DNA of 64,000 bases, from positions 1,449 through 65,448 of the forward strand of contig CANQFA010000008.1 in assembly GCA_947597925.1 (NCBI GenBank), in the 5' to 3' direction. Source of the stretch: an uncultured Clostridia bacterium. Its GTDB lineage: Bacteria > Bacillota > Clostridia > Christensenellales > Borkfalkiaceae. Position numbers and translations under genes: made by a program. Of this stretch, positions 1-46,100 are shown piece by piece; positions within the stretch are counted from its first letter, which is position 1, and the number at the start of each line of letters is the position of its first letter. Below the pieces are notes generated by a model, which was not told where the DNA came from, did no database searches, and saw nothing but the letters and a program-made list of their open reading frames with translations.

Positions 1-162
1 TTGCTTCTTACCCGTGAGTTCGGCGGGTACCTTGTAGGTCTTGACGTAAACCTTATTCTTGCCCGTAAAAGGGTCTTTGCCGCTACAACGCAGTTCAAAG
101 GAAAGTTCCCCGAAACGGTTGTACTTTTCACGAACGTGCATGAGGTCTTTTTTTATCTTCAT
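1..162 (-). CDS. Phage-type tyrosine integrase, N-terminal arm-binding region (partial, runs off the left edge)
   Basis: Not in the ORF track because it is truncated. My reverse-strand translation from the ATG at 162-160 gives MKIKKDLMHVREKYNRFGELSFELRCSGKDPFTGKNKVYVKTYKVPAELTGKKQ. AGGAG (rc of 171-175) lies 8 nt upstream. The KDPFTGK.K...T.K pattern is typical of the N-terminal arm-type DNA-binding domain of Firmicute phage/ICE integrases. Confidence 0.45.
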   Translation of the reverse strand, partial: MKIKKDLMHVREKYNRFGELSFELRCSGKDPFTGKNKVYVKTYKVPAELTGKKQ

Positions 163-315
163 GAATGATACTCCTGTGACATGATGATTTTTTTGTATAG
201 GATAGAGGGTCAGGGGAGCCGAGTGTTTCGGCTTCCCCGACCATATCCGAATGTTGCCCCATAGATGTTTCCTCGTTCGTGTATTCCTCATTTGTGCTAT
301 GTTGGGGCGGGGTGC

Positions 316-675
316 TTACTTCTTCCACTTCAAGCGTCGGAATACCTCTGCTTGCGTTCGGCACGGGTGGCATTTCTTCTTTTCTCCGCACGGGTTATCT
401 ACTTGTTCGCAACAGGTGAGATGACCGATGAAATCCGTGCCGAGCGTGTCGTCATATCCTTTCAGGGTGAGATAGATTGCCTCTTTGCTCACGTCCTCTA
501 TGGGGTATGTAATGGGCGGGAACGAGTGAAATGTGGATTCCTTATACGCGTCTACGATTGCCTCGTTCAGGTGAACGCCTCGTATGGAATCCCCCAACAC
601 CACGCCCATTTGAATCTCACCGAAGTCGTTCCCAAGCAGTAAAGAGAACATGGCAAACATGATTTGCTGTGGCAT
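316..675 (-). CDS. Hypothetical protein with a Cys-rich SEC-C-like C-terminal tail, possibly 5'-truncated
   Basis: 119-aa ORF ending CCEQVDNPCGEKKKCHPC, which resembles a SEC-C metal-binding motif. The same frame stays open upstream to 846 with no ATG (see finding). AT-rich island context. Confidence 0.35.
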   Translation of the reverse strand: MPQQIMFAMFSLLLGNDFGEIQMGVVLGDSIRGVHLNEAIVDAYKESTFHSFPPITYPIEDVSKEAIYLTLKGYDDTLGTDFIGHLTCCEQVDNPCGEKKKCHPCRTQAEVFRRLKWKK

Positions 676-745
676 GGGGCATAAATTGAAACTCTTCCCG
701 CTAACGCGGATTGCGCTGTCGGGGTAGTAACGGGGTTCGGGGCAA

Positions 746-2542
746 TTGAAATGCTTACAGAAGATTTTAATATCTTCTTTGAGCTTTTCCCGTGCGGCGG
801 CTTCGCGTTCGCATTTCTTCCTGTTGTTTATGATATGGAAGCGCAGTCAAGTCAGGGATTTGATCGATTCGCTTTATAACGGCTATCCTACGGGATATAT
901 CATCACATGGAAGAACCCCGATGTTCGTACGAAAGACGGCGGAATCGCCAACGGCAAAAAGGTGCTTATTGATGGGCAACAACGCATTACTGCTCTTATG
1001 GCAGCAATTGCGGGGTTGGAGGTCCTCGATCAGGATTTCAATAAAGATCGTATACGTATAGCCTTCAATCCCGTTGCGGAAGATGAGAGCAAACGCTTTG
1101 CCGTACAAGACGCGTCACACTTGAAGGATAAACGCTGGATCCCCGATATTTCTGTCGTCTTTTCCGTTGACTTTAAGCAACGCATGTTCGAAAATGAATA
1201 TTTGAAGAACAATCCGTCCGTCGATCCCGAGGAGTTATCCGAGATCATTATGAAGCTGAAAGCGATTGCGAACAGACAAATCGGCGTTATCGAACTCAAT
1301 CATAATTTGGACATCGATGAAGTAACCGAAATTTTTATACGAATCAACTCCAAAGGAACGGAATTGAGTCAATCCGATTTTGTCATGTCGAAAATGGCGG
1401 CAGATACCGCTCATGGTGGCGGATTGATGAGAAAAGCGGTCGATTATTTCTGTCATCTTGCGGTAAAACCGGAATTTTATCCTCAAATAGTACATGATGC
1501 GGAATTTCAGGCCTCACCTTACGCCGGCAAGATCAAGTGGCTCGCAAACGATTACGACGACATCTATGACCCTGATTATGGCGATATGCTTCGGGTTTCG
1601 TTCATGCACCAATTCCGCCGCGGTAAACTGGCAGATCTTGTCAGTTTACTTTCTGGTCGTGATTTCAAAACGAAGGAGTTCCGCGACGACATCGTGGAAG
1701 ATTCTTATGCGAAGCTCAGCACAGGCATCATGAATTTTATAAACCAATATAATTTTGCGCAATTTGTAATGGCAATTAAAGGCGCAGGATTTGTATCAAG
1801 CAAACTTCTCAATTCCAAAATGACGCTGGATTTTGCATACACATTATATTTAATTCTTTTACAAGACAAATCGATCCCCAATGCACAGATCAAGCGTTAT
1901 GTTCAAAAGTGGTTCGTTTTGGCAACTTTGACATCGCGTTATATCGGTTCTCCCGAAACAACCATGGATCGGGATATGCGTAGTATCGAAGAAAAGGGAT
2001 TTTTGAACTTCATGTCAGAAACGGAGGCCGCAAATCTATCGGATACGTTTTGGAACATCACGCTTCCGCAATACCTTGAAACTTCTTCGGTGAATAGCCC
2101 TGCTTTTAATGTGTTTTTGGCGGCGCAAATCAACATGAATTGCAATTCTATGTTGATGAATGGGACAAAGATTTCCGATTTAATAAGTATTTCCGGTGAC
2201 GTTCATCACATCTTTCCCCGTGCTTATCTGAAAAGTAACGGTGTAGAGTCCAAAACCAAATACAATCAGGTCGCTAATTATATTTATCTTGATACGCAAG
2301 TAAATAAGGCAATCAGTGATGACGCTCCTTGCGTATACTTCTCGAAAGCTATTCATCAATGCGAGACGGGGGAAATCGTTTTGGGAAATATTTCCGATAT
2401 CAACGTCTTTAAGAAAAATCTCGAAGAAAATTGCATTCCGGACGGAATAGAAAAAATGGCAGTTGAAAGCTACGACGATTTCCTTGTAAAAAGGCGTGGT
2501 CTTATGGCAAAACTGATTGAGCAATATTATAACAAACTCTGA
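746..2542 (+). CDS. DUF262 (ParB/Srx-like, DGQQR motif) plus C-terminal DUF1524/His-Me-finger-like nuclease domain; GmrSD/BrxU/SspE-family type IV restriction-like protein
   Basis: LIDGQQRITAL motif near the N-terminus. The C-terminus has GDVHHIFPRAYL...YNQVANYIYLDTQVN (H-H...N...N). The first 28 codons (MKCLQKILISSLSFSRAAAS...) look non-native, and the FQR part of the usual FQR..VW motif is missing. An alternative ATG is at 830. Confidence 0.75.
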   Translation: MKCLQKILISSLSFSRAAASRSHFFLLFMIWKRSQVRDLIDSLYNGYPTGYIITWKNPDVRTKDGGIANGKKVLIDGQQRITALMAAIAGLEVLDQDFNKDRIRIAFNPVAEDESKRFAVQDASHLKDKRWIPDISVVFSVDFKQRMFENEYLKNNPSVDPEELSEIIMKLKAIANRQIGVIELNHNLDIDEVTEIFIRINSKGTELSQSDFVMSKMAADTAHGGGLMRKAVDYFCHLAVKPEFYPQIVHDAEFQASPYAGKIKWLANDYDDIYDPDYGDMLRVSFMHQFRRGKLADLVSLLSGRDFKTKEFRDDIVEDSYAKLSTGIMNFINQYNFAQFVMAIKGAGFVSSKLLNSKMTLDFAYTLYLILLQDKSIPNAQIKRYVQKWFVLATLTSRYIGSPETTMDRDMRSIEEKGFLNFMSETEAANLSDTFWNITLPQYLETSSVNSPAFNVFLAAQINMNCNSMLMNGTKISDLISISGDVHHIFPRAYLKSNGVESKTKYNQVANYIYLDTQVNKAISDDAPCVYFSKAIHQCETGEIVLGNISDINVFKKNLEENCIPDGIEKMAVESYDDFLVKRRGLMAKLIEQYYNKL

Positions 2543-2633
2543 TAAAACTTATTAGAGGACGCGCGTGCTTTCATAAAAATATTTAGGCGGCTAATGCTTT
2601 CAGGCAACAGCAGGGCAGTCATTTGGTGAGTCA

Positions 2634-2678
2634 AAGCCAAAAAAATAAGACGAGGCTTGTCCTCGTCTTATTTTTTTG
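2634..2678. terminator. Bidirectional rho-independent terminator
   Basis: Hairpin taagacgagg-cttgt-cctcgtctta (2646-2670), flanked by an A-run upstream and a T-run downstream. It sits between the convergent DUF262 gene and trxA. Confidence 0.7.
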
Positions 2679-2713
2679 CGCGGCATTGTCATACGCGGGG
2701 AGCCGCTTTCCGA

Positions 2714-3025
2714 TCAGAGATTTTCTTCGAGGAAGTGCTCCATCTGCTCCTCGGAGAGGTAGCCGACGCTGTGCGCCTTCACCTGTCCGTCCGCGAAGAC
2801 ATAGACATCCGGGATGGAGAAGATGCCGAGGGAGGCCGCGAGATCGCCGTTTTCATCCACGTTGATCTTCACAAATCTGGCTCTCTCCGCAAATTTTTCC
2901 CCAAGTTTTTCCAGCACGGGGCCGAGCATGCGGCAGGGGCCGCACCAAGGCGCCCAGAAGTCGCACACCACCGTCTCCCCGCTCGATACGAGTTCATCCA
3001 ATGCTCTTCCCGTCAATTCTTCCAT
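2714..3025 (-). CDS. trxA: Thioredoxin
   Basis: 103 aa with the WAPWCGPCRM active site. Confidence 0.95.
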   Translation of the reverse strand: MEELTGRALDELVSSGETVVCDFWAPWCGPCRMLGPVLEKLGEKFAERARFVKINVDENGDLAASLGIFSIPDVYVFADGQVKAHSVGYLSEEQMEHFLEENL

Positions 3026-3029
3026 GAGT

Positions 3030-4289
3030 TCACCTCCGCAGACACTCTTTGATATACTGTGCGATCTCGCCGAATTTTACGCGCTCGGACGTAGACGCGA
3101 ACATGTTGCGCACCTCTGCGGCGCCCTCGCGGAGTTCTTCCTCGCCGATGGTGACGACGACGGGGAAGTTGAGCTTGCCCGCATACTTGAACTGCGCCTT
3201 GACGGAGCGGTCCATGAGGTCGGTCTCCACGAGGAGCCCTTCCCCGCGCAATTCTTCGGCGAGTGAGAGTGCATAGGCGCGCGACGGGGCATCCATGCCC
3301 GCGATATAGGCGTCGGGAAGCTGCTCCGCCGTGGGAACATCTACTGCACTCATCACCATGAGAAGGCGCTCCAACCCCGCCGCAAATCCTACCGCGGGAG
3401 TGGGCTTCGCCCCGAGCTGCTCCAAGAGGCCATCGTACCTGCCGCCGCCGAGCACGGTGCTCTGTGCGCCCAGCGCGGAGGAGGTGAACTCAAAGACGGT
3501 GCGGCTGTAATAGTCGAGTCCGCGGACGATGCGGGGGTTGACGGTGTAGGCGACCTTCCCGTCGAGCAGCTTTTTCACGGCCTCGAAGTGGGCGCGGCAA
3601 TCGTCGCACAGGCTGTCCAAAATGCTCGGTGCGCCCGCGGAAATTTCCTTGCAGACCTCCTCCTTGCAATCGAGCAGGCGCATGGGATTTTTTTCGAAGC
3701 GGACCTTGCAATCTGCGCACAGTTTGTCGAGATGGGGTCGGAAATATGCCCTCAATGCCTCCGCGTACTTTGCGCGGCAAGCAGGGCATCCGATGCTGTT
3801 CAGTTCGAGATGCACCGCTTCTCCCACGCCGAGCGAGTTCAAGAACCTGTTCGCGAGCAAGATGACCTCTGCGTCCGCTTCGGGTTGGGCGGAGCCGTAT
3901 AGTTCGGCGCCGAACTGGTGAAATTCGCGCAGCCTGCCCGCCTGCGGCCGCTCATAGCGGAAGGCGGAGATGAGGTAATACGCCTTAAAGGGCATCACGC
4001 CCCCCTGCAATCCGTTGGAGAGAAAGGCGCGCGCGACCCCCGCCGTGCCCTCGGGGCGGAGGGTGATGGAGCGGTCCCCCTTGTCGAGGAAGGTATACAT
4101 CTCCTTCGTCACGATGTCGCTCGTGTCCCCCACGCCGCGCGAAAAGAGCTCGGTGTGCTCAAATACGGGGGTGCGGATCTCCTTGAATCCGTACAGTTTT
4201 GCCGTCTCGCGGGCAATGCCCTCCACCGTCTGCCAGAGATAGGCCTCCGACGGGAGCATGTCCTTACAGCCCTTGGGTATCTGGATCAT
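3030..4289 (-). CDS. hisS: Histidine--tRNA ligase
   Basis: 419 aa. Class II HisRS signatures (MIQIPKGCKDMLP..., RYERPQAGRLREFHQFG, GGGRYDGL). Confidence 0.95.
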   Translation of the reverse strand: MIQIPKGCKDMLPSEAYLWQTVEGIARETAKLYGFKEIRTPVFEHTELFSRGVGDTSDIVTKEMYTFLDKGDRSITLRPEGTAGVARAFLSNGLQGGVMPFKAYYLISAFRYERPQAGRLREFHQFGAELYGSAQPEADAEVILLANRFLNSLGVGEAVHLELNSIGCPACRAKYAEALRAYFRPHLDKLCADCKVRFEKNPMRLLDCKEEVCKEISAGAPSILDSLCDDCRAHFEAVKKLLDGKVAYTVNPRIVRGLDYYSRTVFEFTSSALGAQSTVLGGGRYDGLLEQLGAKPTPAVGFAAGLERLLMVMSAVDVPTAEQLPDAYIAGMDAPSRAYALSLAEELRGEGLLVETDLMDRSVKAQFKYAGKLNFPVVVTIGEEELREGAAEVRNMFASTSERVKFGEIAQYIKECLRR

Positions 4290-4332: not shown

Positions 4333-5154
4333 TCATTCTATGCCGAGACGCTCGAGTGCCTCGGCGGCGTCGGCGTCCCCGTCGTCTGCGGCGCGCTCAT
4401 ACCGGAGGATCGCCTGTTCGAGGTCTTTTTCGGTGCCGATGCCCTCTTCGTAGCATCTGCCCAGTGCGGTCTTCGCCCACAGGCAGTCGCGCTCGGCGGA
4501 GGCGCGGTAGAGCGAAAAGGCCTTCTCGGCGCTCTTCTCCGTCCCGTTGCCCGCTTCGGCGCACACGCCGAGGTAGTACAGGGCAAGCGCATCGCCCTGC
4601 GCGGCGGCCATATGGAGCCAGCGGACGGCCTCTTCGTAGTTCTGCTTGATATAACCTGTCGTCTCGTCGGACATCCCATAGCCGTGGAAATAGAGCATGC
4701 CGAGGTCATATTGTGCCAAAAGGGAGCCCCTTTCGGCGGCCTCCGCAAGCAGGGCGCGCCCCTTTTCGAGGTGTGCACGCATGCCCAGCCCCTGCGAATA
4801 GATGCAGCTGAGCGCATAGAGGGCATCGGCATGTCCGCCCTTCGAGGCCTTTTCGTACCACAGGCGGGCCTCGTTCCATTCGTCCTGCGCGATGCCGCGG
4901 TTATCCCGCTCGAAGATATTTAAGGGCGCGCGGAGATTGGGGCTTCCCGAAGGGATCTGATCGCGGATATAGGCGATCTTCCTCTCTGCCTCCCTCTCGT
5001 AAAAGGCCCCCATGAGGTACTGCGCCTCCGTCTCCCCTCCGTTTGCGCGGGAGAGCAGGGCGGCGAGCGCCCCTTCGTCTTCGGGAAGGTCGAGCTCTAC
5101 GCTCGCCTCCATGCAGAAGGGAACTTTTTCGAGGTTCAGAGTGATGGGCAGCAT
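4333..5154 (-). CDS. Sel1-like repeat (SLR/TPR) protein
   Basis: Repeated A.Y.LG.CY..G.G...D...A..WY..AA motifs. AAGGAG SD upstream of 5154. Confidence 0.8.
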   Translation of the reverse strand: MLPITLNLEKVPFCMEASVELDLPEDEGALAALLSRANGGETEAQYLMGAFYEREAERKIAYIRDQIPSGSPNLRAPLNIFERDNRGIAQDEWNEARLWYEKASKGGHADALYALSCIYSQGLGMRAHLEKGRALLAEAAERGSLLAQYDLGMLYFHGYGMSDETTGYIKQNYEEAVRWLHMAAAQGDALALYYLGVCAEAGNGTEKSAEKAFSLYRASAERDCLWAKTALGRCYEEGIGTEKDLEQAILRYERAADDGDADAAEALERLGIE

Positions 5155-5289
5155 GTTTTTTCTCCTTATGATGCGGACATGGTATGGGCATGTGCGATCA
5201 AACGCGGGATCCCTCGACTTCGCTCGGGATGACAGAAGCAGCCCGCTCGGGATGACATGAGAAGCTTCGCTCGTAATGACGTGAGAAGG

Positions 5290-5707
5290 CTCAATTTGCG
5301 CCGCGCGCTTCTTGCCCGATGAAACGATGAAGAGACAAAGGCAAGTTAAAGCGCTGACGCCAATTTCTATCGCGGATTTCTATGCCCTCAATTGAGATCC
5401 CTCGCTTCGCTCGGGATGACGTGAGAAGGCTCGGGATGACAAAAAAGGCGTCTGATAAATAGAAATCCGCGAAACTTCAATCTTCTCTGAAAAACCAAAA
5501 ACCACGCTTTTTGGTTTTTCCCTCAATTTGCGCCGCGCGCTTCTTGTCTGATGAAACGGCGAAGAGCCAAAGGCAAGTTGAAGCGCTTAAGACAGTTTCT
5601 ATCGCGGATTTCTATGCCCTCAATTGAGCTCCCTCGCTTCGCTCGGGATGACGTGAGAAGGCTCGGGATGACAAAAAAGGCTTCTAATAGATAGAAATCC
5701 GCGAAAC
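5290..5707. repeat. Two copies of a 186-bp structured intergenic repeat (5290-5475 and 5522-5707, period 232 bp), with a degenerate partial copy at about 5205-5289
   Basis: Direct reading shows the copies differ at only a handful of positions. Each contains the palindrome ctcaattgag and a 14-bp long-range inverted repeat (tcgcggatttctat / atagaaatccgcga). Each also has REP-like hairpins (atccc-N11-gggat, gctcgggatgac units). The 46-bp spacer holds an A/T-only hairpin (aaaccaaaaa-ccacgc-tttttggttt). Confidence 0.8.
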
Positions 5708-5709
5708 CC

Positions 5710-7017
5710 TCACAGCACGTATTTCTTCAGATCTCTGTCCTTCGTGATGCTCTTCAGGTGCTCCTCGACATAGGCGCGGTTGACCTCGACCGTGGTCATG
5801 GGGTAGTCGCCGCCCGCATTGTACGAGATATCTTCGAGGAGGGACTCCATCACGGTGTGCAGCCGCCGCGCGCCGATATCTTCGCTCGTCAGGTTGATCT
5901 CCTCGGCGATCTCGGCGATGGCGTCGATGGCGTCGGGCGAAAAGCGAAGGTCGATATTGTCCACGGCGAGCAGGACCGCATATTGCTGAGTGAGGGAATG
6001 CTCGGTATTCGTGAGGATATCGACAAAGTCCTGCTTCGTGAGCGAATGGAGCTCCACGGAGACGGGGAATCTTCCCTGCAGTTCGGGAATGAGGTCCTCC
6101 ACGCGCGACACGTGAAAGGCGCCCGCCGCGATAAAGAGCATGTAGTCCGTCTTCACGGGGCCGTACTTGGTCATGACCGTACTGCCCTCGACGATGGGAA
6201 GGATGTCGCGCTGGACCCCCTCGCGGGAGACATCGGCGCCCGAAGTGTTGCCCTTGCCCGCGATCTTGTCGATCTCATCGATGAAGATGATGCCGTCGTT
6301 TTCGGCGCGGCGGAGGGCCTCGTCGGTGACGGCGTCGTCATCGATGAGCTTTTCCGCTTCCTCGGCAGTGTAGAGCTTCCTGAGCTCCTTTACCGTGAGG
6401 GTGCGCTTCTTGTGCTTGGCGGGGAACATTCCCCCGAGGATGGAGCCGAGATCGATCGCGGCGCCGCCCGGGAGGAGCTCCATGCTCTTGGGCTCGTCTA
6501 AGACATCTGCCTCCAGAGAGAGATTGTCAAACTCCCCTTTTTGCAGCGATGTGAGGAGGTTCTCCTCGAAGAGTTTGCGATCGAGCTCGCCGCGGTCATT
6601 TTTCTTGACCTCGACGAGGAGCTTCAGAATGCGCTGCTCGGCGGCCGCCTTTGCCTTGGCGGAGACCTCCGCCGTCTTTTCATCCTTGACGAGGCGGATG
6701 GCGCACTCCACGAGATCGCGCACCATGCCCTCGACATCCTTGCCGACATAGCCGACTTCGGTATATTTCGTCGCCTCGACCTTGACGAAGGGCGCCTTTA
6801 CGAGCTTTGCGAGCCGCCGTGCGATCTCCGTCTTGCCGACACCCGTGGGCCCCTTCATGATGATGTTTTTGGGCGTGATCTCGTCGCGCAGTTCCTGTGA
6901 GAGCTGTGCGCGGCGATAGCGGTTCCGCAGGGCAATGGCGACCGCCTTTTTGGCCTCGTCCTGCCCGATGATGTGCTTATTGAGTTCGGTTACGATCTGT
7001 TTGGGTGAAAGATCCAT
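5710..7017 (-). CDS. hslU: ATP-dependent protease ATPase subunit HslU (ClpY)
   Basis: MDLSPKQIVTELNKHIIGQDEAKKAVAIALRNRYRR, Walker [16 protein letters not shown]. Start moved to the ATG at 7017 (GAAGGAG SD 8 nt upstream). The track start at 7044 would include the SD. Confidence 0.95.
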   Translation of the reverse strand: MDLSPKQIVTELNKHIIGQDEAKKAVAIALRNRYRRAQLSQELRDEITPKNIIMKGPTGVGKTEIARRLAKLVKAPFVKVEATKYTEVGYVGKDVEGMVRDLVECAIRLVKDEKTAEVSAKAKAAAEQRILKLLVEVKKNDRGELDRKLFEENLLTSLQKGEFDNLSLEADVLDEPKSMELLPGGAAIDLGSILGGMFPAKHKKRTLTVKELRKLYTAEEAEKLIDDDAVTDEALRRAENDGIIFIDEIDKIAGKGNTSGADVSREGVQRDILPIVEGSTVMTKYGPVKTDYMLFIAAGAFHVSRVEDLIPELQGRFPVSVELHSLTKQDFVDILTNTEHSLTQQYAVLLAVDNIDLRFSPDAIDAIAEIAEEINLTSEDIGARRLHTVMESLLEDISYNAGGDYPMTTVEVNRAYVEEHLKSITKDRDLKKYVL

Positions 7018-7103
7018 GATGATAACTCCTTCTATGTTTCCCAAGGCCTACCCTTTTTTGGGGGAACTTGGGCAAGGCCTACCCCCTCCGGGGGCTTTTT
7101 CGC

Positions 7104-7237
7104 GTCATTTCGACGAGGCACTATAATGGTGTCATTCTGAGCCTGTCGAAGAATCGCCTTAGCCTTACCAACACGTCATTTCGACGAGGCGCTATTGTGG
7201 TGTCATTCTGAGCCTGTCGAAGAATCGCCTTAGCCTT
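7104..7237. repeat. Tandem 63-bp REP-like repeat (7104-7166 and 7175-7237, period 71 bp) inside the hslV-hslU spacer
   Basis: The unit is gtcatttcgacgaggcRctatWRtggtgtcattctgagcctgtcgaagaatcgccttagcctt and contains the hairpin attct-N11-agaat. Four additional CCCCC-N3-6-GGGGGTAGG hairpins lie at about 7046-7095 and 7305-7370. Confidence 0.8.
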
Positions 7238-7377: not shown

Positions 7378-7911
7378 TCACACGGTTTCGCAGAGAATGT
7401 GGTCGTTTGTGAAGACGCAGATCTCCGAGGCGATCTTCAGGGACTTCCGCGCGATCTCCTCGGCGGAAAAGTCGGTATTTTGCGCGAGCGCACGGGCAGC
7501 GGCGAGGGCATAATTTCCCCCGCTCCCGATGGCACAGATGCCCTCGTCGGGTTCTATGACCTCCCCCGTCCCCGAGAGAATGAGGAGAGTGTCCTTGTCC
7601 GCGGTGATCATCATGGCATCGAGCTTGCGGCCTATCTTGTCGCTTCGCCAGAGGTCCGCGAGCTCCACCGCCGAGCGCATGAGGTTGCCCGCAAACTTAT
7701 TGAGCATTCCCTCGAAGCGCTCCGAGAGGGAAAAGGCGTCGGTGACGCTCCCCGCAAAGCCGAGGATCACCTTTCCCCCGTAGATGCGGCGCACCTTGAC
7801 TGCCGTATTTTTGAAGATGACGCTCTCGCCCAAGGTGACCTGTCCGTCCCCCGCGATCGCGGTCACGCCGTTTCGCTTGACGGCGCAAATGGTCGTACCT
7901 CTGAATTCCAT
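7378..7911 (-). CDS. hslV: ATP-dependent protease subunit HslV (ClpQ)
   Basis: [15 protein letters not shown]... with an N-terminal Thr nucleophile context. AAGGAG SD. Confidence 0.95.
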
Positions 7912-7982: not shown

Positions 7983-9536
7983 CTATTTTTTGAAGCTCCT
8001 TAGGGCTTCTTGAGCTTTCTTATACCCCTGCTCGGCGGCCTTCGTATACCACTCTACCGCCTTCTTATAGTCCTGCGGAACACCTCGGCCAAATCTATAA
8101 CAAACTCCAAGGTTATATTGTGCTTCTGCATTTCCCTGCTCGGCGGCCTTCGTATACCACTCTACCGCTTTCTCATAGTCCTGTGGAACGCCCCGACCAA
8201 GGTCGTAACAATAGCCGAGATTACATTGTGCATCTGCATCTCCCTGCTCGGCGGCCTTCGTATACCACTCTACCGCTTTCTTATAGTCCTGCGGAACACC
8301 TTGGCCATTGCAGTAACAAACCCCGAGTGCTTCTTGCGCATCCGCAAATCCCTGTTTTGCAGCCTCTTCGAAAAGTTCTACCGCCTTCTCGAAATCTTTT
8401 GCTTTATAGTACCTCGTCCCCTCCTCGCAAAGCTTCTTGGGTGACTTGGACTGTACGGGCTTGGTCGGCTGCGTTTGTTTGGCGGGCTGTACGTGCTTGA
8501 TTGTCTCGGCAGGCTCAGTAGGGTTTGCGGGCTGCTCGGGTACGGGCTGCGGAGCGGGGTTGAGATGAAACTTGTGCCTTATGATCCGATCGAGGACATC
8601 TTCCTTTGTGCGGGCATATTGCAGCTCCGCGAAGAAACTCTCAAGTAATGGCTTTGCGCCCGATTTCGTCTTTCCGTTGTCGCTCGAAGGGCGATACTCC
8701 ACGCGGTGGATCTCCTTGCGGTGCTCGAGAAAGTAAGCGATCTCCTTCGAAAGGCCCTCACAGTCGAGGTCACGCGAGTTCCCGGTCGAGACAAATACCA
8801 CGCTTTGACAGGTCTTCATGGCGGTCTCGAGTATCCGCTGATAATTTTCCGCAGCGCCCCTGCCGTGGCGAATGTTGCGCTCCGCCACAAAGCAGCGCAA
8901 TTTTCCCTCCGCCTCTAAGTAGTCGACAAGTTCATGGACCTCCGCCATGTCCTTGCTCGAGTAGGCAATGAAGACCTCGCAAGTGAGATGGGCAGCGTAG
9001 ACGCCGTCATCGAGCTTTTTCGCCTCTTCCTCGACGCGGTTGAGGTAGGCTTCATATTCCCAGCCAATGAAGATGCCCGCCAGATGGACCCGCTCGAGAA
9101 AATTTTTCATGGAGCCCACGTTGCGCTTTTCGAGAGAGGCGATCATAAATTCGCAGACGGTCACAAGGAGGGTCTTGTCCTGTCCTGAGACGTCGGCCTT
9201 GTCGAGAAAGCGATTGACCGCGCCCTTGTCGCTGTCACAGGCCGCCTCGTAAAAATTCGCCATGAAGTCATTGGGGAAGTACTTCTTCACTTCCCACGCC
9301 GCCGCAGTCACCCGCTCGCTGCTGACATTTTCTGCGTGCGCCGCATTGTAGAGATTGCTGCGGGCATGGCGAAGCTTTTCCTGTTCCTTTGCGTCAAGAG
9401 CTTTGAGAAGAGTTTCCTGCGCATCGAGCGTATCTTGAACAAAATGCCCGCCGCAGTGGGTACAAGTATAGCCGTCGCGAGTCTTCACGAGTTTATCCCC
9501 GCCGCAGTTCGGGCAGAGCAAGAGTTTCAGGTCCAT
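7983..9536 (-). CDS. Zn-ribbon / helical linker / TIR domain / Pro-rich linker / Sel1-repeat protein
   Basis: N-terminus CPNCGG...CTHCGG. The TIR_2-like core is VFIAYSSKDMAEVHELVDYLEAEGKLRCFVAERNIRHGRG...VVFVSTGNS...LSKEIAYF (about 8711-8978). Three near-identical 36-aa Sel1 repeats sit at the C-terminus. AAGGAG SD. GC is lower than in neighbouring genes (31/60 at 8581-8640). Confidence 0.8.
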   Translation of the reverse strand: MDLKLLLCPNCGGDKLVKTRDGYTCTHCGGHFVQDTLDAQETLLKALDAKEQEKLRHARSNLYNAAHAENVSSERVTAAAWEVKKYFPNDFMANFYEAACDSDKGAVNRFLDKADVSGQDKTLLVTVCEFMIASLEKRNVGSMKNFLERVHLAGIFIGWEYEAYLNRVEEEAKKLDDGVYAAHLTCEVFIAYSSKDMAEVHELVDYLEAEGKLRCFVAERNIRHGRGAAENYQRILETAMKTCQSVVFVSTGNSRDLDCEGLSKEIAYFLEHRKEIHRVEYRPSSDNGKTKSGAKPLLESFFAELQYARTKEDVLDRIIRHKFHLNPAPQPVPEQPANPTEPAETIKHVQPAKQTQPTKPVQSKSPKKLCEEGTRYYKAKDFEKAVELFEEAAKQGFADAQEALGVCYCNGQGVPQDYKKAVEWYTKAAEQGDADAQCNLGYCYDLGRGVPQDYEKAVEWYTKAAEQGNAEAQYNLGVCYRFGRGVPQDYKKAVEWYTKAAEQGYKKAQEALRSFKK

Positions 9537-32454: not shown

Positions 32455-32621
32455 ATGTTTGACCGCCAAAGCAGCCGCCCCGAGACAACAAAAAAGCTGA
32501 TAGCAGGCATAAGCACAGGTTATTTTATCGCGGGAAATATAAGTGCAGCTTATGGGAAAATTCGCAAACTCCCCTATTTTGCGCCAAAAACTGCAATTTT
32601 TCAGATTTTCCTATAAGAAAA

Positions 32622-32882
32622 AGCAGACCCTTTGCGATCTGCTCTATTTTACAGTTTTCTTCCGCGAGGGACGAAGAGACGGACCCGCCGCGGGAGCACC
32701 TCTATCTCGATATCTCCCCGCGTCCCCTCCTCGCCGTCAAAGTCCCACACGAGGTTTTTTTGCGTGCTGATGCGGACATGCCTCCCCCGCATGACGTCGA
32801 CCCACCTTCTCCGCCGCCCGATCCCGAAGAGCATGAGGCGGACGAGGGAGAGATAGGAGAGAAATTTTCCGAGGGCGCCCTT
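32622..32882. repeat. Left copy (261 bp) of the duplicated 3' end plus terminator of the dagK-family gene
   Basis: Aligns with 34341-34619. I count 6 mismatches plus one 18-bp indel. Confidence 0.9.
32649..32882 (-). pseudogene. Orphan 3' fragment (last 77 codons) of the DAG-kinase-family lipid kinase gene
   Basis: Encodes KGALGKFLSYLSLVRLMLFGIGRRRRWVDVMRGRHVRISTQKNLVWDFDGEEGTRGDIEIEVLPRRVRLFVPRGRKL, almost identical to the C-terminus of 34386-35282. It retains the native hairpin (32623-32642) and T-tract. Confidence 0.85.
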
Positions 32883-32913
32883 CTGCTTGACAAAATTTAA
32901 GGAAGGTATTAAA

Positions 32914-33291
32914 ATGAGCATAGTTGGCTTTTTGCTCAAGCCGAAAAAAGAAATGGCGAAAAAGGGAACAAGATATGTAAAGGTCGGTAAATACTATCTG
33001 ACTTCCCATGCGCAGAATCGGATCGTTCAAAAGGAAAGGACTATGGATAAGGTCGATGTTTTGGACAATCTGTTTACGAAGCCCAATGCCATTACACAAG
33101 TGAAATACAATAAAAGCGGCAAACCCTCATATGATCGTGTGGGTAAGAGAATTACGACAAGTATCAATCCAACAAACAACTATGTTGCGACTTGTCGACC
33201 TGTAAGCAAAAAAGAAATTAAACAATTCGTTTTGACTGATATCGGAAAAGGAGGAAAAAGGAAATATGTTAAACAAGAGTCCAGAAAGTAA
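32914..33291 (+). CDS. Small basic protein (125 aa) with a DUF4258/RelE-superfamily-like signature; putative toxin
   Basis: AAGGAAGG SD 7 nt before the ATG at 32914. KYYLTSHAQNRIVQKERTMDKVDVLDNLFTKPNAITQ...YDRVGKRITTSINPTNNYVATCRPV matches the DUF4258 pattern x-H-A-x-x-R-x(3)-R-x-[IM]-x(3)-V-x(2)-[VL]...V-[IV]-T-x-Y/R. K/R-rich. Overlaps the next ORF by 26 nt. Confidence 0.6.
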   Translation: MSIVGFLLKPKKEMAKKGTRYVKVGKYYLTSHAQNRIVQKERTMDKVDVLDNLFTKPNAITQVKYNKSGKPSYDRVGKRITTSINPTNNYVATCRPVSKKEIKQFVLTDIGKGGKRKYVKQESRK

Positions 33292-33541
33292 ATTCACGCC
33301 GAGAGCGAAAGAGGAAGCTAAAAAACTTTTAGCCGAAATGAATATAACGGAGTTGAACGACGACAACCTTTATGAGGTCGAAGTTGAGCTTGACACAAGG
33401 GTAAGCGGATTGGTTACGATGGACGAAAGCGAACACCGGCCGATCGATCATGAGCTTTTGGAAATTTACGATACACTGACGGATATTATTCTGGAGCACG
33501 AAGAAGAGATCGATTTTCTAAATAAGCTGTTTTTGGAATAA
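33266..33541 (+). CDS. Small acidic protein, paralogue 1 (91 aa); candidate antitoxin or immunity protein
   Basis: AAAGGAGG SD. Shares F-x(2)-A-x(n)-[ND]-x-[DE]-x-L-Y-[DE] and the C-terminal [DE]-I-D-F-L-N-K-L-F-L with the next two ORFs. Confidence 0.6.
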   Translation: MLNKSPESKFTPRAKEEAKKLLAEMNITELNDDNLYEVEVELDTRVSGLVTMDESEHRPIDHELLEIYDTLTDIILEHEEEIDFLNKLFLE

Positions 33542-33580
33542 AAAGGAGCGGAACGTCATTGAAAAATTTCGGAGGGAATT

Positions 33581-33901
33581 ATGGAAACGACAAAGGTCAA
33601 ATTTTCGCAGTCGGCGGTTGATTTTATTGCGAAGTATATGATTGAAGAGTTTGGAATAACGGGCGAAATCAACGAAGATATGCTGTATGACATATATGAC
33701 ATATATGTTGCGGCAGACGACTACGATTCCTTTTTCGCGACCCGCGAGATTGACCCGCAATTCGTTTTTGACGAAGAAAAATCCAAAGCGGCAGGTGAAT
33801 TTACAGCGGAATACGACAGTGTGGTTTTAAGGGATAAGACGTTTGACTTGGATGACCTCAACCGCCGTTTGGGATTGCGGAAAACAGGCCCAAACGCATA
33901 G
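33581..33901 (+). CDS. Small acidic protein, paralogue 2 (106 aa)
   Basis: GGAGGG SD. FSQSAVDFIAKYM...INEDMLYDIYDI...DLDDLNRRLGLRKTG. Confidence 0.65.
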   Translation: METTKVKFSQSAVDFIAKYMIEEFGITGEINEDMLYDIYDIYVAADDYDSFFATREIDPQFVFDEEKSKAAGEFTAEYDSVVLRDKTFDLDDLNRRLGLRKTGPNA

Positions 33902-33957
33902 TTCCACCATTGACTTGCCAATTCGGCTTGACCGATATCGGAAAAGGAGGCAGCGAA

Positions 33958-34278
33958 ATGAAAAAAAGAAATAAAAAGACGGAACAAGAAACAACGCTCT
34001 TTCCCGTCAGTGAAGAAGCAATTGAATTTATCCGCACATACATCCTTCCCATGAAACATATCGACTATATTGACGAGGATGTATTTTATGATATTTTTGA
34101 TATTGCTGAAAGCTGGGAACTCGATATGATCGACGAAAACGGATTTGACAAGACAGATGATCCGTTTACAGAACGGAATACAATGGGAATGAATTTCGTC
34201 TCTGAAATATCGGGGCAAGATGGCGAGCCGGATCTTGATGACCTCAACCGCCGTTTGGGATTACGGAAAACAAATTAA
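33958..34278 (+). CDS. Small acidic protein, paralogue 3 (106 aa)
   Basis: AAAGGAGG SD before the ATG at 33958 (the track TTG start at 33910 is rejected). FPVSEEAIEFIRTYI...IDEDVFYDIFDI...DLDDLNRRLGLRKTN. Confidence 0.65.
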   Translation: MKKRNKKTEQETTLFPVSEEAIEFIRTYILPMKHIDYIDEDVFYDIFDIAESWELDMIDENGFDKTDDPFTERNTMGMNFVSEISGQDGEPDLDDLNRRLGLRKTN

Positions 34279-34292
34279 CTTCTTTGACTCGA

Positions 34293-34327
34293 CCAAAAGT
34301 ATTTTCAGAAATACTTTTGGTTTTTTA
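34293..34327 (+). terminator. Strong rho-independent terminator closing the cassette
   Basis: ccaaaagtattt-tcag-aaatacttttgg followed by TTTTTTA. Confidence 0.8.
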
Positions 34328-34340
34328 TGATCCCTTTTGG

Positions 34341-34619
34341 AGCAGACCCTTTGCGATCTGCTCTATTTTACAGTTTTCTTCCGCTTTACAGTTTTCTTCC
34401 GCGAGGGACGAAGAGACGGACCCGCCGCGGAAGCACCTCTATCTCGATATCTCCCCGCGTCCCCTCCTCGCCGTCAAAGTCCCACACGAGGTTTTTTTGT
34501 GTGCTGATGCGGACATGCCTCCCTCGCATGACATCGACCCGCCTTCTCCGCCGCCCGATCCCGAAGAGCATGAGGCGGACGAGGGAGAGATAGGATAGAA
34601 ATTTTCCGAGGGCGCCCTT
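34341..34619. repeat. Right copy (279 bp) of the duplicated dagK 3' end. It includes an internal 18-bp tandem duplication (34367-34384 / 34385-34402) spanning the stop codon
   Basis: Direct alignment with 32622-32882. Confidence 0.9.
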
Positions 34620-35282
34620 TCCCCGCTTGAGGACGGCGAGCTCGAGGGTGCCGTCCTGCATGCTGGCGCTGCGGTTGACGGGGAAGCCCGCCACCGACCG
34701 TCCGTTCATGACGAAGACGAGCATGCCGTCCCCCTCGCTCACCCGCTGTCCGCACTCCACGCGCACGGGAAAGCTCTCGAAGGGGAAGCACTTCCCGAGC
34801 CCGCGGAAGAGATAGGCAAACCACCCGAAGGCGCGCTTTTCGCTCTGCGGCGTCTCGTAGGTGATGCGGGTGGGCGTCCCCGCCGCGGCGATATACATGG
34901 CATAGCGGGTGCCGTTGATGCGCATGCAGTCGAGTTCGGCGCTCCTTCCCTTCAGGATGACGTCGATCGCACGGAGGGGATCGCGCGGGATGCCGAGCGA
35001 GCGCGCCACGTCGTTTGCCGTCCCCGCGGGGAGATAGCCGAGCTGGACGCGGGAATCGCCCAATCCCTCGAGCACCCGCTGAAAGGTCCCGTCACCGCCC
35101 GAAAAGACGATGACATCGTAACCCGCGGCGCCCCGCTTTACCCACTCCGTCAGGTCCTCGGCGCTCTCCGTCGCGTGGACATCTACCTCATAGACACGCT
35201 CGAGCTTCTTGGTGATGCGCGCCGCCTTACGCGCGGTCTTGCCCCGCCCGCTCGCGGGATTGTAGAGGAAAAGGCACTTCAT
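34386..35282 (-). CDS. Diacylglycerol kinase family lipid kinase (YegS/DagK-like)
   Basis: MKCLFLYNPASGRGK...VIVFSGGDGTFQRVLEGL...GYLPAGTANDVARSLG motifs. Confidence 0.88.
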   Translation of the reverse strand: MKCLFLYNPASGRGKTARKAARITKKLERVYEVDVHATESAEDLTEWVKRGAAGYDVIVFSGGDGTFQRVLEGLGDSRVQLGYLPAGTANDVARSLGIPRDPLRAIDVILKGRSAELDCMRINGTRYAMYIAAAGTPTRITYETPQSEKRAFGWFAYLFRGLGKCFPFESFPVRVECGQRVSEGDGMLVFVMNGRSVAGFPVNRSASMQDGTLELAVLKRGKGALGKFLSYLSLVRLMLFGIGRRRRRVDVMRGRHVRISTQKNLVWDFDGEEGTRGDIEIEVLPRRVRLFVPRGRKL

Positions 35283-43109: not shown

Positions 43110-46100
43110 TCAGAAATCCAGATCGGACTTCTCGACGATCGCAGTCTTGATGAGTCCTTCGGCGAGGAGCTCGTCTTCGCTGCGATAAGCGAACTGTGCC
43201 GCATAGTCCACCTGCTCGATCTCCTCCTTGACGGCGCCGAGACGCTCCATGAGGAGCTCCACGAGACGAAGAGTGCGCTTGAGGGCGACATGGCTCTTGA
43301 CCTTCATCATGAGCGGGGTGCGCTCGTACATCTTGGTGTCGCCCGCGTACTTCTGGTGATACACGGTGTCGGGGAATTCGTCGGGATTGAGGGCGAGATA
43401 GACGCACAGGGTCTTGCCGCGCACGCCGATCTTGGCGATCGTCTCGTTGTTATAGGCGAAGCGGTCATTGGACCAGTTGACCTGCGAGGTGATGTTCGTG
43501 TAGGACAGGAAGGCGTTCTTGAGGGCGCTGTAGGTCTCCTTTACGCTCTCCTCACTCTCGATGATCTTGGCGGTGAAGCTTCTCTTATAGCGGGTCGTGA
43601 GTTCGGCCTCTGCGACGGGCTCGCCGACTTCGGGTTCTTCGGCGACGGCCTCGGCGGGAGCGATCTCCTCGACGACTTCGGCGGGTGCCTCCTCAGCGGC
43701 CTCCTCGACGGGAGCGGGCTCTTCGGCAGGCGCTTCCTCCTCGACGGGAGCGGGCTCTTCGGCCGCGGTGAGTTCCTCTTCTACAGGGGCGGGTGCGGGC
43801 TCTTCGGCGGGTGCGGGCTCCTCGGTCTCAAGCTCGGCAAGGCGCTGTTCGAGGGCGTGCAGTCTCTCCTCGAGCGCGGCCTGCTCGGCGGCCTGCTCGG
43901 CAGCCTTCTCTTCGGCGATGCGGGCAGCCTCGGCCTCTTCTTCGGCCTTCTTTGCAGCTTCCTCTTCGGCGGCGATGCGGGCTGCCTCTTCTTCGGCGGC
44001 CTTCTGTGCGGCCTCCTCTTCCTCGGCCTTCTTCTGCTCTTCGGCGATCTCGGCGAGCTTCTGCTCTACGAGACGATTGACTCTCTCCTCTTCGGCGATA
44101 CGGGCAGCTTCGGCCTCTTCCTCTGCCTTGCGGGCGGCCTCCTCTTCGGCGGCCTTCTGCGCGGCTTCTTCTTCGGCGGCAATGCGAGCTGCCTCTTCCT
44201 CGGCCGCTTTCTGTGCGGCTTCCTCTTCGGCGGCCTTTCTCTGCTCTTCGGCGATCTCTGCGAGCTTCTGCTCTACGAGACGATTGACTCTCTCTTCTTC
44301 GGCGATGCGGGCGGCTTCGGCCTCCTCTTCTGCCTTACGGGCGGCCTCTTCCTCGGCGGCGATACGGGCAGCTTCGGCCTCCTCCTCTGCCTTCTTCTGC
44401 TCTTCGGCGGCCTTGCGTCTCTCCTCTACGAGGTCGGCGACTCTGACCGCAAAGGCTTCCTTGGCGATTTCGTCCTCTTCGGCCTTCTTCGCAGCCTCCT
44501 CTTCGGCGGCGATGCGGGCGGCTTCGGCTTCCTCTTCGGCGATGCGGGCGGCTTCGGCCTCCTCTTCTGCCTTACGGGCGGCTTCTTCCTCCTCGGCGAT
44601 GCGCGCGGCCTCGGCTTCTTCTGCCTTGCGGGCAGCCTCTTCTTCGGCGGCCTTCGCGGCAGCTTCCTTTTCGGCGGCCTTCTTCGCCTCTTCGGCGGCG
44701 AGGCGCTTCTCTTCCACGATCTCGGCTACCTTCTCCGCGAGGGTCTGATAGTCGATCTCTTCCTTCTCTTCGACGGGACGTGCCGCCATCTCTTCGGCGA
44801 GCTTCACGGCCTCGGCCTCTTCGTCGGCCTTGCGCTTCTCGTCCACGATCTCGGCGACGCGCTGAGCGAGGCCCTCGTAGTCGAAGGTATCCTCTTCCTC
44901 GACGGGCTCCTCGGCTGCGGTCTCCTCGACTTCCGCCTCGGCGCATGCGGCGCACTTTGCGGTGAGGAACTCCACCACCTTCTCGGCGATGGCATCCACG
45001 CCCTCTTCATCGACGCTCAGGTCGAAGCGACGCTCCATGGCTGCTGCCACGGAATCGGTGATCTCGGGCACAACTTCGCGGACATCGTCGGCGACATGGA
45101 GCATCTCGACGACCGTGTCGGCAACTTCCGCCGCCGTGAGCTCTTCGTTTGCCTTCGGCAATTTCTCGAGAATGATCTCGGCAGCTTCCTGCGCGATCTC
45201 TCTGTAATCGGTGATCTCGTTGATGGCCTTTGCGAGCTTGTCGTAGTCGATGGGATCGACGGGAACGGGCTCCTCGGCAACTTCCTCTGCGGTCTCTTCC
45301 ACGACTTCCTCGGCAGCTTCCTCGGCGACGGGCTCCTCTGCAACTTCCTCGGTGGCCTCCTCGGCGGGCTCGGTCTCGACCTCCTCCACCGTGAGTTCGT
45401 CGAGCTTGGCGCTGATGGCGTCGATCTTCTCGTCGAGGGTCCCGTTGAGCTCTTCCTTGAAGGACTCGAGGCGCTCCTCGTACTGCTTGCCCTGCGCCTC
45501 GAGGCTGTCGGTGACCGCCGCCTCGTGTGCGGAGAGCTTCTCGTCGATGATCTGCTCGATCTCGTGGGTATCCACGGGCTCGCTTGCATTGGCCTTGATG
45601 AGGGTGGACTGCTCGTCGAGGATGTCGAGAACTTCCTGACGGAAGTCGGCGAACTCCTTCCTGAGGTCGTCCTTGCTCTCGCCCTTGGCATCGTAGTGAA
45701 GGTCTTCGAGATCCTCAATGGCCTCCACGATCTCCTCGGTGCGCTGTTCGAAGCGCTTGGAGAGACGGCCTTCGAGGCCGGCAAAGCCCTCGCCGCTCTT
45801 CAGGTCGCGGCGGACGACGGCGAGCCCTTCCACGAGCTGCGTCCTGACAAAGTGCGCAAGCTGGTTGGTACGGTCCTTGACCACGCCGGTGAGGGCCTCT
45901 TTCAGTCCCTTGTTTTCCGCCTTGAGCGACTCAACCTCTTTCTTGAGCGCCTCGAAGTTGGCGCCGAACTGCTTCGAGAGACACTTCACTTCGAAGATGG
46001 CCTCGCTGAGCGCCTCTTTCAGGTCGCCGTTTGCCGCCTCCTGCTTCTTCAGCTCCGCGCTCACGGACGTCTTGAGTTCCGCGATGTTTTTGTTGACATC

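Follow-up and report, generated by a model that had tools for sequence, protein, structure and literature searches.

The stretch of DNA considered here (the window; 64,000 nucleotides, positions 1,449 to 65,448 of contig CANQFA010000008.1, assembly GCA_947597925.1) comes from an uncultured Clostridia bacterium of the family Borkfalkiaceae, order Christensenellales. Near its middle, an AT-rich insert with four small open reading frames (ORF1 to ORF4) is bracketed by a direct duplication of the 3′ end of a gene for a YegS/BmrU-type lipid kinase (dagK). The insert is best explained as a horizontally acquired toxin-immunity cassette, with ORF1 as the predicted toxin, ORF2 as its antitoxin and ORF3 and ORF4 as orphan immunity-type genes, and its placement is best explained by general recombination rather than by a recombinase of its own. 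Coordinates are positions in the window, except where they follow an L-number (L004, L063, L095 etc.), which denotes a comparison locus or contig. The features of the locus are as follows.

32620..32645, minus strand: native intrinsic terminator hairpin of dagK, stem AGCAGA / TCTGCT, followed by TTTTTCTTAT
32622..32882, minus strand: left (orphan) copy of the dagK 3′ end, next to the native T-tract and to the intergenic sequence that precedes the GS-III gene
about 32873..32882, no strand: junction with the signature of illegitimate recombination, at the microhomology GGCGCCC(Y)T, placed by three-way alignment
32883..34340, plus strand: AT-rich insert of foreign DNA (40.5% GC), a truncated four-gene Christensenellales module of which the ORF1-side half is left
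32887..32915, plus strand: promoter-like TTGACA-17-TAAAAT, abutting the ORF1 start codon and present in all module copies
32914..33291, plus strand: ORF1, 125 amino acids, basic, predicted RNase-type toxin of the BECR fold with DUF4258-like features
33266..33541, plus strand: ORF2, 91 amino acids, acidic, putative cognate antitoxin or immunity protein, overlapping the ORF1 stop by 26 nt
33581..33901, plus strand: ORF3, 106 amino acids, acidic, putative second immunity type, 38% identical to ORF4 and with the common C-terminus DLDDLNRRLGLRKT
33919..33950, plus strand: relic of an ORF1 3′ end (QFGLTDIGKGG and a Shine-Dalgarno site) in front of ORF4
33958..34278, plus strand: ORF4, 106 amino acids, acidic, putative orphan gene of the immunity type, whose counterpart behind ORF2 in L095 is 89% identical
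34291..34322, plus strand: the cassette's own intrinsic terminator (-14.3 kcal/mol, z = -6.9)
34327..34340, plus strand: natural module end ATGATCCCTTTTGG, resembling the left inverted repeat (IRL) of other module copies, with whose ends it aligns
34341..34619, minus strand: right copy of the dagK 3′ end, the one that makes the gene complete; it holds an 18-bp tandem duplication (34367-34402)
34386..35282, minus strand: intact YegS/BmrU-family lipid kinase gene (dagK)

The direct repeats 32622-32882 and 34341-34619 flank an insert of 1458 bp (32883-34340). They are identical over 44 nt (100%; 32622-32665 and 34341-34384), and 32648-32882 matches 34385-34619 at 229 of 235 positions (97.4%), leaving six mismatches. 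The right repeat also holds an extra tandem copy of the 18-bp sequence TTTACAGTTTTCTTCCGC, which stands at 34367-34384 and again at 34385-34402, directly after the dagK stop codon. The alignment thereby reproduces the six mismatches and the tandem duplication counted in an earlier note on this DNA, together with its description of the repeat unit, which consists of the terminator hairpin, the 3′ untranslated region, the stop codon and the last 77 codons of a gene whose product matches Pfam DAGK_cat and YegS_C. The T-tract is kept next to the hairpin in the left copy only, the right-copy hairpin running into CCAAAAGGGAT and hence lacking it. An identical structure (100%) is present in three independently assembled ENA metagenome contigs, and one of the three (L004, 7.6 kb) runs through the two repeat copies into the unique sequence on either side.

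Of the six mismatches that separate the dagK copies, five are synonymous changes at third codon positions, a bias with P ~0.006 when set against all possible changes and ~0.016 when only transitions are counted, over six sites in total; the mismatches are a mixture of transitions and one transversion. An orphan fragment decaying in place would not give such a bias, which argues for two functional alleles as ancestors, and the pattern fits a derivation of the two dagK ends from two working alleles. A diversity-generating retroelement was also considered and rejected, given that the mismatches are not adenine-specific, five of the six are silent and no reverse transcriptase is present.

Among 54 dagK loci examined by self-BLAST, no other duplication of the dagK 3′ end was found, and a GTDB dagK search, a protein collection and exact-protein look-ups of dagK and GS-III yielded no insert-free conspecific genome. 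The nearest other dagK is 62-64% identical (GTDB genomes and protein collection). The exact GS-III look-up returned only one contig, which breaks at the repeat, and GS-III lies downstream of dagK in none of the dagK relatives examined. Sixteen of the 54 GTDB contigs that carry a dagK relative (L008-L061) end no more than ~520 bp downstream of dagK, and in one of them (L040, 8981-10580) a 25-nt direct repeat lies in the dagK 3′ flank together with a fragment of a tyrosine integrase and a tRNA-like stretch. Across the order, this flank seems to be a variable spot or one prone to integration.

The GC content of the insert (40.5%) compares with 59.8% for the window, and its four ORFs, each with a Shine-Dalgarno site, lie on the same strand ahead of the cassette's own terminator, as the earlier note had described. 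Pfam, NCBIfam, PHROGs and PADLOC detected no integrase, recombinase or transposase among them, again in line with that note, and gave no family match of meaningful score for any of the four proteins. Searches for known RNA families, among them the group II intron and bridge RNA, returned nothing meaningful in the insert or in the parent element described below. Against copies in other genomes, the ratio of nonsynonymous to synonymous substitution (dN/dS) of the cassette genes is 0.05-0.23, and the genes therefore appear to be maintained. The only promoter-like site that remains upstream of the window cassette is TTGACA-17-TAAAAT. In every copy compared (window, L063, L064, L065) a sequence TTGAC(A/T)-17-TA(T/A)AAT ends at the ORF1 start codon; a transcript from it would begin inside ORF1, where a nearly invariant Met14 lies downstream, and a second, regulator-independent transcript from this conserved site is a possibility.

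About 110 free-standing proteins from Christensenellales metagenome-assembled genomes (MAGs) make up the family of ORF1, in which T19, H32, Q34, N52, Y73, R75 and T82 are invariant. The AlphaFold model of ORF1 (predicted local distance difference test, pLDDT, 91.5) has as its top solved-structure match by Foldseek the CdiA-CT tRNase of E. coli NC101 (5i4r; probability 0.99, E 0.03). Further fold matches are to the colicin E5 and colicin D nuclease domains and to RelE (PDB 3ao9, 1tfo and 1wmi among those listed), and in the viral structure library BFVD to a DUF4258 protein and to the C-terminal domains of large phage proteins. On the basis of the model, ORF1 is best read as an RNase toxin of the BECR (Barnase-EndoU-Colicin E5/D-RelE) fold, and the toxin-like gene that the earlier note saw in the insert can be placed accordingly among BECR toxins. 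An H-A-Q motif and an invariant tyrosine had made an HUH/Y1 transposase another candidate for ORF1; this was rejected, the folds recovered being those of BECR toxins and no match to an IS200/IS605 TnpA being found. ORF2 travels with ORF1 and would be its cognate antitoxin or immunity protein. The note's array of paralogous acidic proteins reduces to ORF3 and ORF4, which are paralogues of each other and unrelated to ORF2. The toxin and immunity activities of all these proteins are predictions.

Wherever else enough flanking sequence is available, homologues of ORF1 form part of a module in which genes for two further proteins, P255 and P43, lie on one strand and ORF1 and an acidic partner are divergent from them (L063-L077, L085-L124 and L095/L096). 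P255 has 251-255 amino acids, whereas P43 has 43, is basic and lysine-rich, and is encoded by a gene overlapping that of P255. The acidic partner is either of the ORF2 type or of the ORF3/ORF4 type, and the C-terminal type of ORF1 co-varies with it. P255 forms more than 320 clusters in a 90% identity collection, the top 120 sharing 75% identity or more with the query. At the sequence level P255 matches no family, the Pfam WYL and helix-turn-helix (HTH) families included. The predicted fold of its C-terminal domain, which is modelled with confidence, is that of the WYL domains of DriD, CapW, BrxR and PafBC (Foldseek probability 1.0, E ~2e-4); its N-terminal half is poorly modelled (pLDDT <50 for residues 77-148), and remote relatives of ~330 amino acids exist, some with a WCX domain. 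P255 is presumably a regulator, divergent from genes that would be under its control. The WYL domain and the WCX domain of relatives led to the rejection of P255 as a recombinase candidate. Like other WYL regulators of defence and toxin genes (BrxR, CapW, DriD, PafBC; PMC9122601; PDB 7qfz, 9c5g, 7tzv), P255 combines a predicted WYL fold with a divergent arrangement and a palindromic putative operator in between. It differs from them in having no WYL or HTH match at the sequence level, in being always paired with P43, and in being absent from the window copy. The putative operator is a conserved palindrome, TTGTCTACC-N17-GGTAGACA, found together with an upstream promoter in the P255-ORF1 intergenic region (L063, L064, L065). 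A half-site GTCTACC/GGTAGAC (L063, ~7866-7909) resembles a TGTCTA beside the IRL core (L097, ~3057-3066), and P255 might bind to the element ends as well.

P255, P43, the operator palindrome and the upstream promoter are all missing from the window, where homology to the module starts ~30-40 nt before the ORF1 start codon. The insert is a truncated half of the module, without the regulator, the operator and one element end. Since the WYL regulator met in parent copies is absent, the window cassette is an unregulated remnant; with the regulator and the regulated promoter lost, mainly the downstream immunity-type genes, or else an unregulated toxin-antitoxin pair, may be expressed from it. The cassette most likely acts as an addiction or immunity islet.

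That the insert DNA is foreign is indicated by its low GC content and by its relatives. Positions 32886-33885 are 88% identical in DNA sequence to L063, which comes from a rabbit-gut MAG (GCA_947626935.1) whose own dagK (L051) has ~50% protein identity to that of the window. Metagenomes with the window strain hold a second, complete copy of the module (L095/L096) in another high-GC host, in the order P255, ORF1′ (90%), ORF2′, ORF4′. Gene content is shuffled between copies, with ORF1-ORF2-ORF3 in L063, ORF1-ORF2-ORF4 in L095 and ORF1-ORF2-ORF3-relic-ORF4 in the window, where the relic (33919-33950) matches the 3′ end of the L095 ORF1 save for a 3-nt gap and is 91% identical to the 3′ end of the window's own ORF1. 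Polymorphic toxin loci are known to hold displaced toxins and retained orphan immunity genes, for example in the type VI secretion system (T6SS) arrays of Vibrio cholerae (PMC5361080). The cassette shares with such arrays, including those of contact-dependent inhibition (CDI) and Rhs systems, the combination of a predicted toxin, a cognate immunity gene and further immunity-type genes, as well as a toxin 3′ relic and shuffled units. It departs from them in that ORF1 is free-standing at 125 amino acids, with no delivery domain or secretion system nearby, and so stands nearer to a type II toxin-antitoxin toxin, and in that intact copies of the module are under a WYL regulator.

Other sites of the module are the intervals leuS/ATP-grasp gene, OTCase/YhbY, HU/MreB, YunB/SpoVAC and PolA/beta-galactosidase gene, among others, and none of the copies inspected (L063, L064, L065, L095, L097, L098, L107, L121) has dagK sequence or lies at a dagK end. 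A search for the insert elsewhere, as the earlier note had suggested, returned the module at other loci and none with dagK ends. Two further observations concern the surroundings of module copies. A strain-level 656-bp indel (L086, 5937-6590, against L085, 5936) carries an XRE-type HTH gene and an ORF for a 107-amino-acid membrane protein; it lies between the terminators of P43 and SpoVAC, and its flanks show no duplication. In L069 and L076 the acidic-ORF end of the module is followed by TTCCATGTYKGGGATTCCACG and then by a GC-rich hairpin, once or twice, a unit that could be a variant form of the end or a small repetitive element.

The left junction is placed by a three-way alignment with L095 as proxy for the module. 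The window agrees with dagK as far as GAGGGCGCCCTT, and with the module of L095 from GGCGCCCCTCTGCTTGAC / GGCGCCCCTCTGCTTGACAAAATTT onward. The sequence GGCGCCC(Y)T is common to dagK (right copy, ~34611-34619) and to the module upstream of ORF1 (L095, 774-783), and the last ~9 nt of the left repeat match the module's own upstream sequence as well as dagK. The crossover lies within this microhomology of 7-9 nt (GGCGCCCYT), inside the module and inside dagK codons, which points to illegitimate recombination; read from the alignment, the junction bears that signature and not that of a site-specific or transposase-made end. An alternative reading of the CTG before CTTGAC as an in-frame indel of the dagK allele was discarded, L095 having CTGCTTGAC, which is module sequence. 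At the right junction ATGATCCCTTTTGG abuts the foot of the dagK hairpin, with the T-tract displaced; its counterparts at other module ends are ATGATTCCCCATGG (L095), TGATCCCCTATG (L063), TCCCTAATGG (L064) and TCCCTAAGGG (L097). The absence of terminal inverted repeats claimed in the earlier note is correct in that the window has no pair of ends, although one IRL-like end has been kept. Its suggestion that the 1.46-kb insert is itself a new mobile unit targeting gene 3′ ends is not supported: the insert is a 5′-truncated fragment of the module, its left end is a microhomology junction, and no other copy lies at dagK.

Recombinational capture from a related donor strain, by an illegitimate junction together with a homologous crossover in dagK, is the preferred history of the locus and is given a probability of about 0.55. 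The donor would have carried the complete module, the natural end of which lay against the terminator hairpin of dagK, and donor DNA would have recombined with an 'empty' chromosome in which the dagK stop codon and hairpin were followed by TTTTTCTTATAGG and then by 32612 leftwards. An illegitimate join at GGCGCCCYT would have linked the P255-ORF1 intergenic region of the module to dagK codons ~78-80 from the stop, and a homologous crossover in dagK would have made the other junction. The donor DNA could have acted as a linear fragment, via homology-facilitated illegitimate recombination (HFIR), or as a circle, formed by loop-out at the microhomology and inserted through a single Campbell-type crossover in the dagK homology. 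The latter is what the earlier note had proposed; a dagK crossover does explain the geometry, but the circle is not a unique solution, a linear fragment being equally possible. Both routes give exactly the observed order and are not separable here. The product would read GS-III ... T-tract, hairpin, dagK 3′ end (recipient), ORF1-ORF4, module end, hairpin, dagK 3′ end (donor) and the rest of dagK, so that the left copy, still joined to its native downstream flank, would represent the allele of the recipient, and the right copy that of the donor. The donor configuration and the order of events are inferred from this product. The unit in the window could now probably leave only by RecA-mediated loop-out between the 261-bp repeats.

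Both routes have experimental precedents. HFIR is known in naturally transformable bacteria (de Vries & Wackernagel, 2002 and Prudhomme et al., 2002, as cited in PMC5361080) and has been proposed as the origin of orphan immunity arrays (PMC5361080), while single crossovers of circles in E. coli gave duplications of 109-950 bp of the homologous locus (PMC3240628). Captures of this type share with the window one microhomology junction, one homology junction, foreign DNA within a direct duplication of the locus and the lack of a dedicated recombinase; the difference is that here the event is deduced from a single natural product in an uncultured gut member of the Christensenellales.

Several points weigh against capture from a donor strain, or against the nature of the cassette as given above. 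The synonymous bias rests on six sites, and later allelic recombination into one copy could produce, or mimic, it. There is no close relative in searchable collections (the next dagK being 64% identical), and neither the empty site nor the donor arrangement is observable. Capture also presupposes that this organism takes up DNA, by competence or in another way. For the toxin fold of ORF1, Foldseek gives a weak E-value (0.03), though the matches are mutually consistent. Finally, terminator flanks are duplicated in L065 (52 nt) and L063 (15 nt), which hints that target duplication is sometimes produced by the integration chemistry of the element.

The alternative that survives best places all events in a single lineage. 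The parent element would have inserted at the dagK hairpin, the segment from ORF1 to the dagK 3′ end would have been duplicated in tandem at GGCGCCCYT, and the intact copy would then have been lost, with allelic exchange following later. Such a course accounts for the same end structure and the same microhomology junction as capture does, yet it needs three events plus a later allelic replacement to reach the 5:1 synonymous bias, and it is regarded as unlikely. The intact copy would have been lost by precise excision or by deletion, and the synonymous differences would have come from alleles of other strains; the parent element is evidently capable of precise movement, whereas no intermediate was seen in the four assemblies.

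Duplicated gene ends are also a product of site-specific integration. Phage 21 and e14 integrate at icd with a phage-borne substitute 3′ end, and the two copies differ mostly silently. An integrative element with a substitute dagK 3′ end, its integrase encoded elsewhere or deleted to leave a remnant, would explain why the intact gene is completed by the copy beside foreign DNA while the displaced copy is an orphan, and why the differences are synonymous, all of which the window has in common with the icd elements; the dagK 3′ ends of relatives are also hotspot-like, with the tRNA-like stretch and integrase fragment of L040 and the many contig breaks. Unlike at icd, however, there is no integrase in or beside the insert and no att-type core, the identity across 261 nt being too even for a core with a diverged tail. 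The module is cut short at the inner junction, a microhomology with its own intergenic sequence, and the gene end does not belong to the module in general, since dagK sequence is absent from all its other copies. An integrative element is accordingly an improbable source of the bracket.

The behaviour of the intact parent element bears on a further alternative. One exact P255 protein (P0286) occurs in two unrelated contexts, L097 and L098-L104, in hosts of different GC content, and the DNA common to the two contexts extends over 1,958 bp at 98.6% identity with sharp boundaries. The parent ends are imperfect terminal inverted repeats (TIRs) of ~22 nt, the IRL beginning (T)AAGGGCGTTTCCCTTAGGGA... 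and the right inverted repeat (IRR) ending ...TCCCTATGGGACACGCACATAT; the outward-facing ends and the first flank bases together make up an inverted repeat, of 35 nt (88.6%) in L097 and of 33 nt (82%) in L098. Intact copies split a host terminator palindrome at its dyad, with the following flanking half-palindromes.

L097, 3029-4957: AAAAAAGGAGAGC ... GCTCTCCTTTTTT
L098, 3029-4957: AAAGTCAGCCT ... AGGCTGATTTT
L064, ~4837-6730: AAAAACGCAAGGTTA ... TAACCTTGCGTTTTT
L121, ~1549-3444 (L121/L122): AAAAGACGCC ... GGCGTCTTTT

The flanks are thus the two halves of a terminator palindrome at four independent sites, and the element therefore appears to enter intrinsic terminators at their dyad, duplicating 0-5 nt. 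The length of the duplication is not fixed, being 0-5 nt in the clean insertions and 15, 52 or 261 nt elsewhere. In L065 the whole terminator hairpin is directly duplicated (6874-6925 and 8636-8687; 52 nt at 83%), and in L063 part of a hairpin (6785-6809 and 9058-9082; 15-nt identical core). Flanking duplications occur at three loci only (the window, L065 and L063) and differ widely in length; that they sometimes result from the element's own integration is a minor possibility. Extended to the window, this would make the repeats a long target-site duplication, generated by the parent's integration machinery at the terminator, with the left part of the element deleted later. The hairpin duplicates that flank the module in L065 and L063 are compatible with this, as is the fact that the window duplication begins exactly at the foot of the hairpin. 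The four clean insertions, in contrast, show a split palindrome with at most 5 nt duplicated, a stagger of 261 nt is without precedent, the left junction lies inside the element rather than at its end, and a duplicate made in situ would begin as identical copies, all of which renders a long target-site duplication very improbable. An assembly artefact, either a mis-join across the repeat or a chimera of two strains, is the weakest explanation and extremely improbable: the repeat copies do differ by ~2%, like two co-assembled strains, and ENA contig coverage is low (~3x by contig names), but the earlier note's refuting condition of an artefact is not borne out, the same structure recurring at 100% identity in three other samples with one contig through both copies and flanks, and the junctions having specific anatomy (the microhomology and the module's natural end).

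With capture retained as the explanation of the window, the mobility of the parent is a question apart. None of its four proteins matches a transposase, P255 being WYL-like and ORF1 BECR-like. No match to P255 or ORF1 was found by tblastn in 50,697 phage or 72,556 plasmid records, a scan of IMG/VR viral contigs gave no module match, and no description of the element was found in the literature searched. On comparative sequence evidence, the parent family consists of previously undescribed toxin-immunity cassettes that appear to be mobile and to target terminators, and that have no recognised transposase. The earlier note's unclassified mobile element may be recognised in this intact parent, with its TIRs and its target at terminator apices, and not in the window insert itself. 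It is tentatively suggested, as a reading that is doubtful at present, that the parent is an unrecognised kind of mobile DNA of ~2 kb, bounded by TIRs and encoding only the WYL protein, P43, the RNase toxin and an immunity protein, which would insert at terminator dyads and cross species, integration being achieved by a non-canonical recombination activity of its own small proteins or by a ubiquitous host function acting on extruded hairpins; the duplications in the window, L065 and L063 would then be alternative outcomes. Several known elements are similar in part. Insertion sequences (IS) that target repetitive extragenic palindromic (REP) sequences (IS1397/ISKpn1, and IS110-family elements such as ISPpu9, PMC12288879) likewise insert at the centres of extragenic palindromes, as the parent does with its imperfect TIRs. 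The parent also carries passenger genes, among them a putative toxin-antitoxin pair, and no transposase of its own, which it has in common with mobile insertion cassettes (MICs) and Xer-dependent pdif modules (PMC6449649). The targets of the parent, however, are unrelated unique terminators rather than repeated REP or dif sequences, and it has no identified cognate IS or transposase, no evident dif-like site and a duplication of 0-5 nt.

Elsewhere in the window, a second AT-rich stretch (1-3000; 43-48% GC) holds a 598-amino-acid ORF (746-2542) with an LIDGQQR motif, which is reminiscent of restriction proteins of the DUF262/GmrSD type. Tandem or near-tandem repeats are present at 7103-7237 (a 64-nt unit, twice), 5290-5707 (a 186-nt unit, twice) and 8026-8365 (a 108-nt period, three times), and a long, highly repetitive, GC-rich coding repeat lies near 44 kb (43870-44906).

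The bracket at dagK provides a clean natural example of the capture of a toxin-immunity cassette beside a housekeeping gene by microhomology and homology. It is a readable scar of an event that is rarely documented in uncultured gut anaerobes, showing the alleles of donor and recipient, the loss of a regulator and immunity genes left as orphans. More important than the bracket itself is the parent family as a lead, an unannotated Christensenellales family with hundreds of members that combines a WYL sensor-regulator, a polymorphic RNase toxin and an immunity gene. If its movement between species into the tips of terminators without a known transposase is true, it would represent a new integration strategy and would add a new defence or addiction module to the catalogue, and it would explain some of the AT-rich islets found at gene 3′ ends in Christensenellales genomes.

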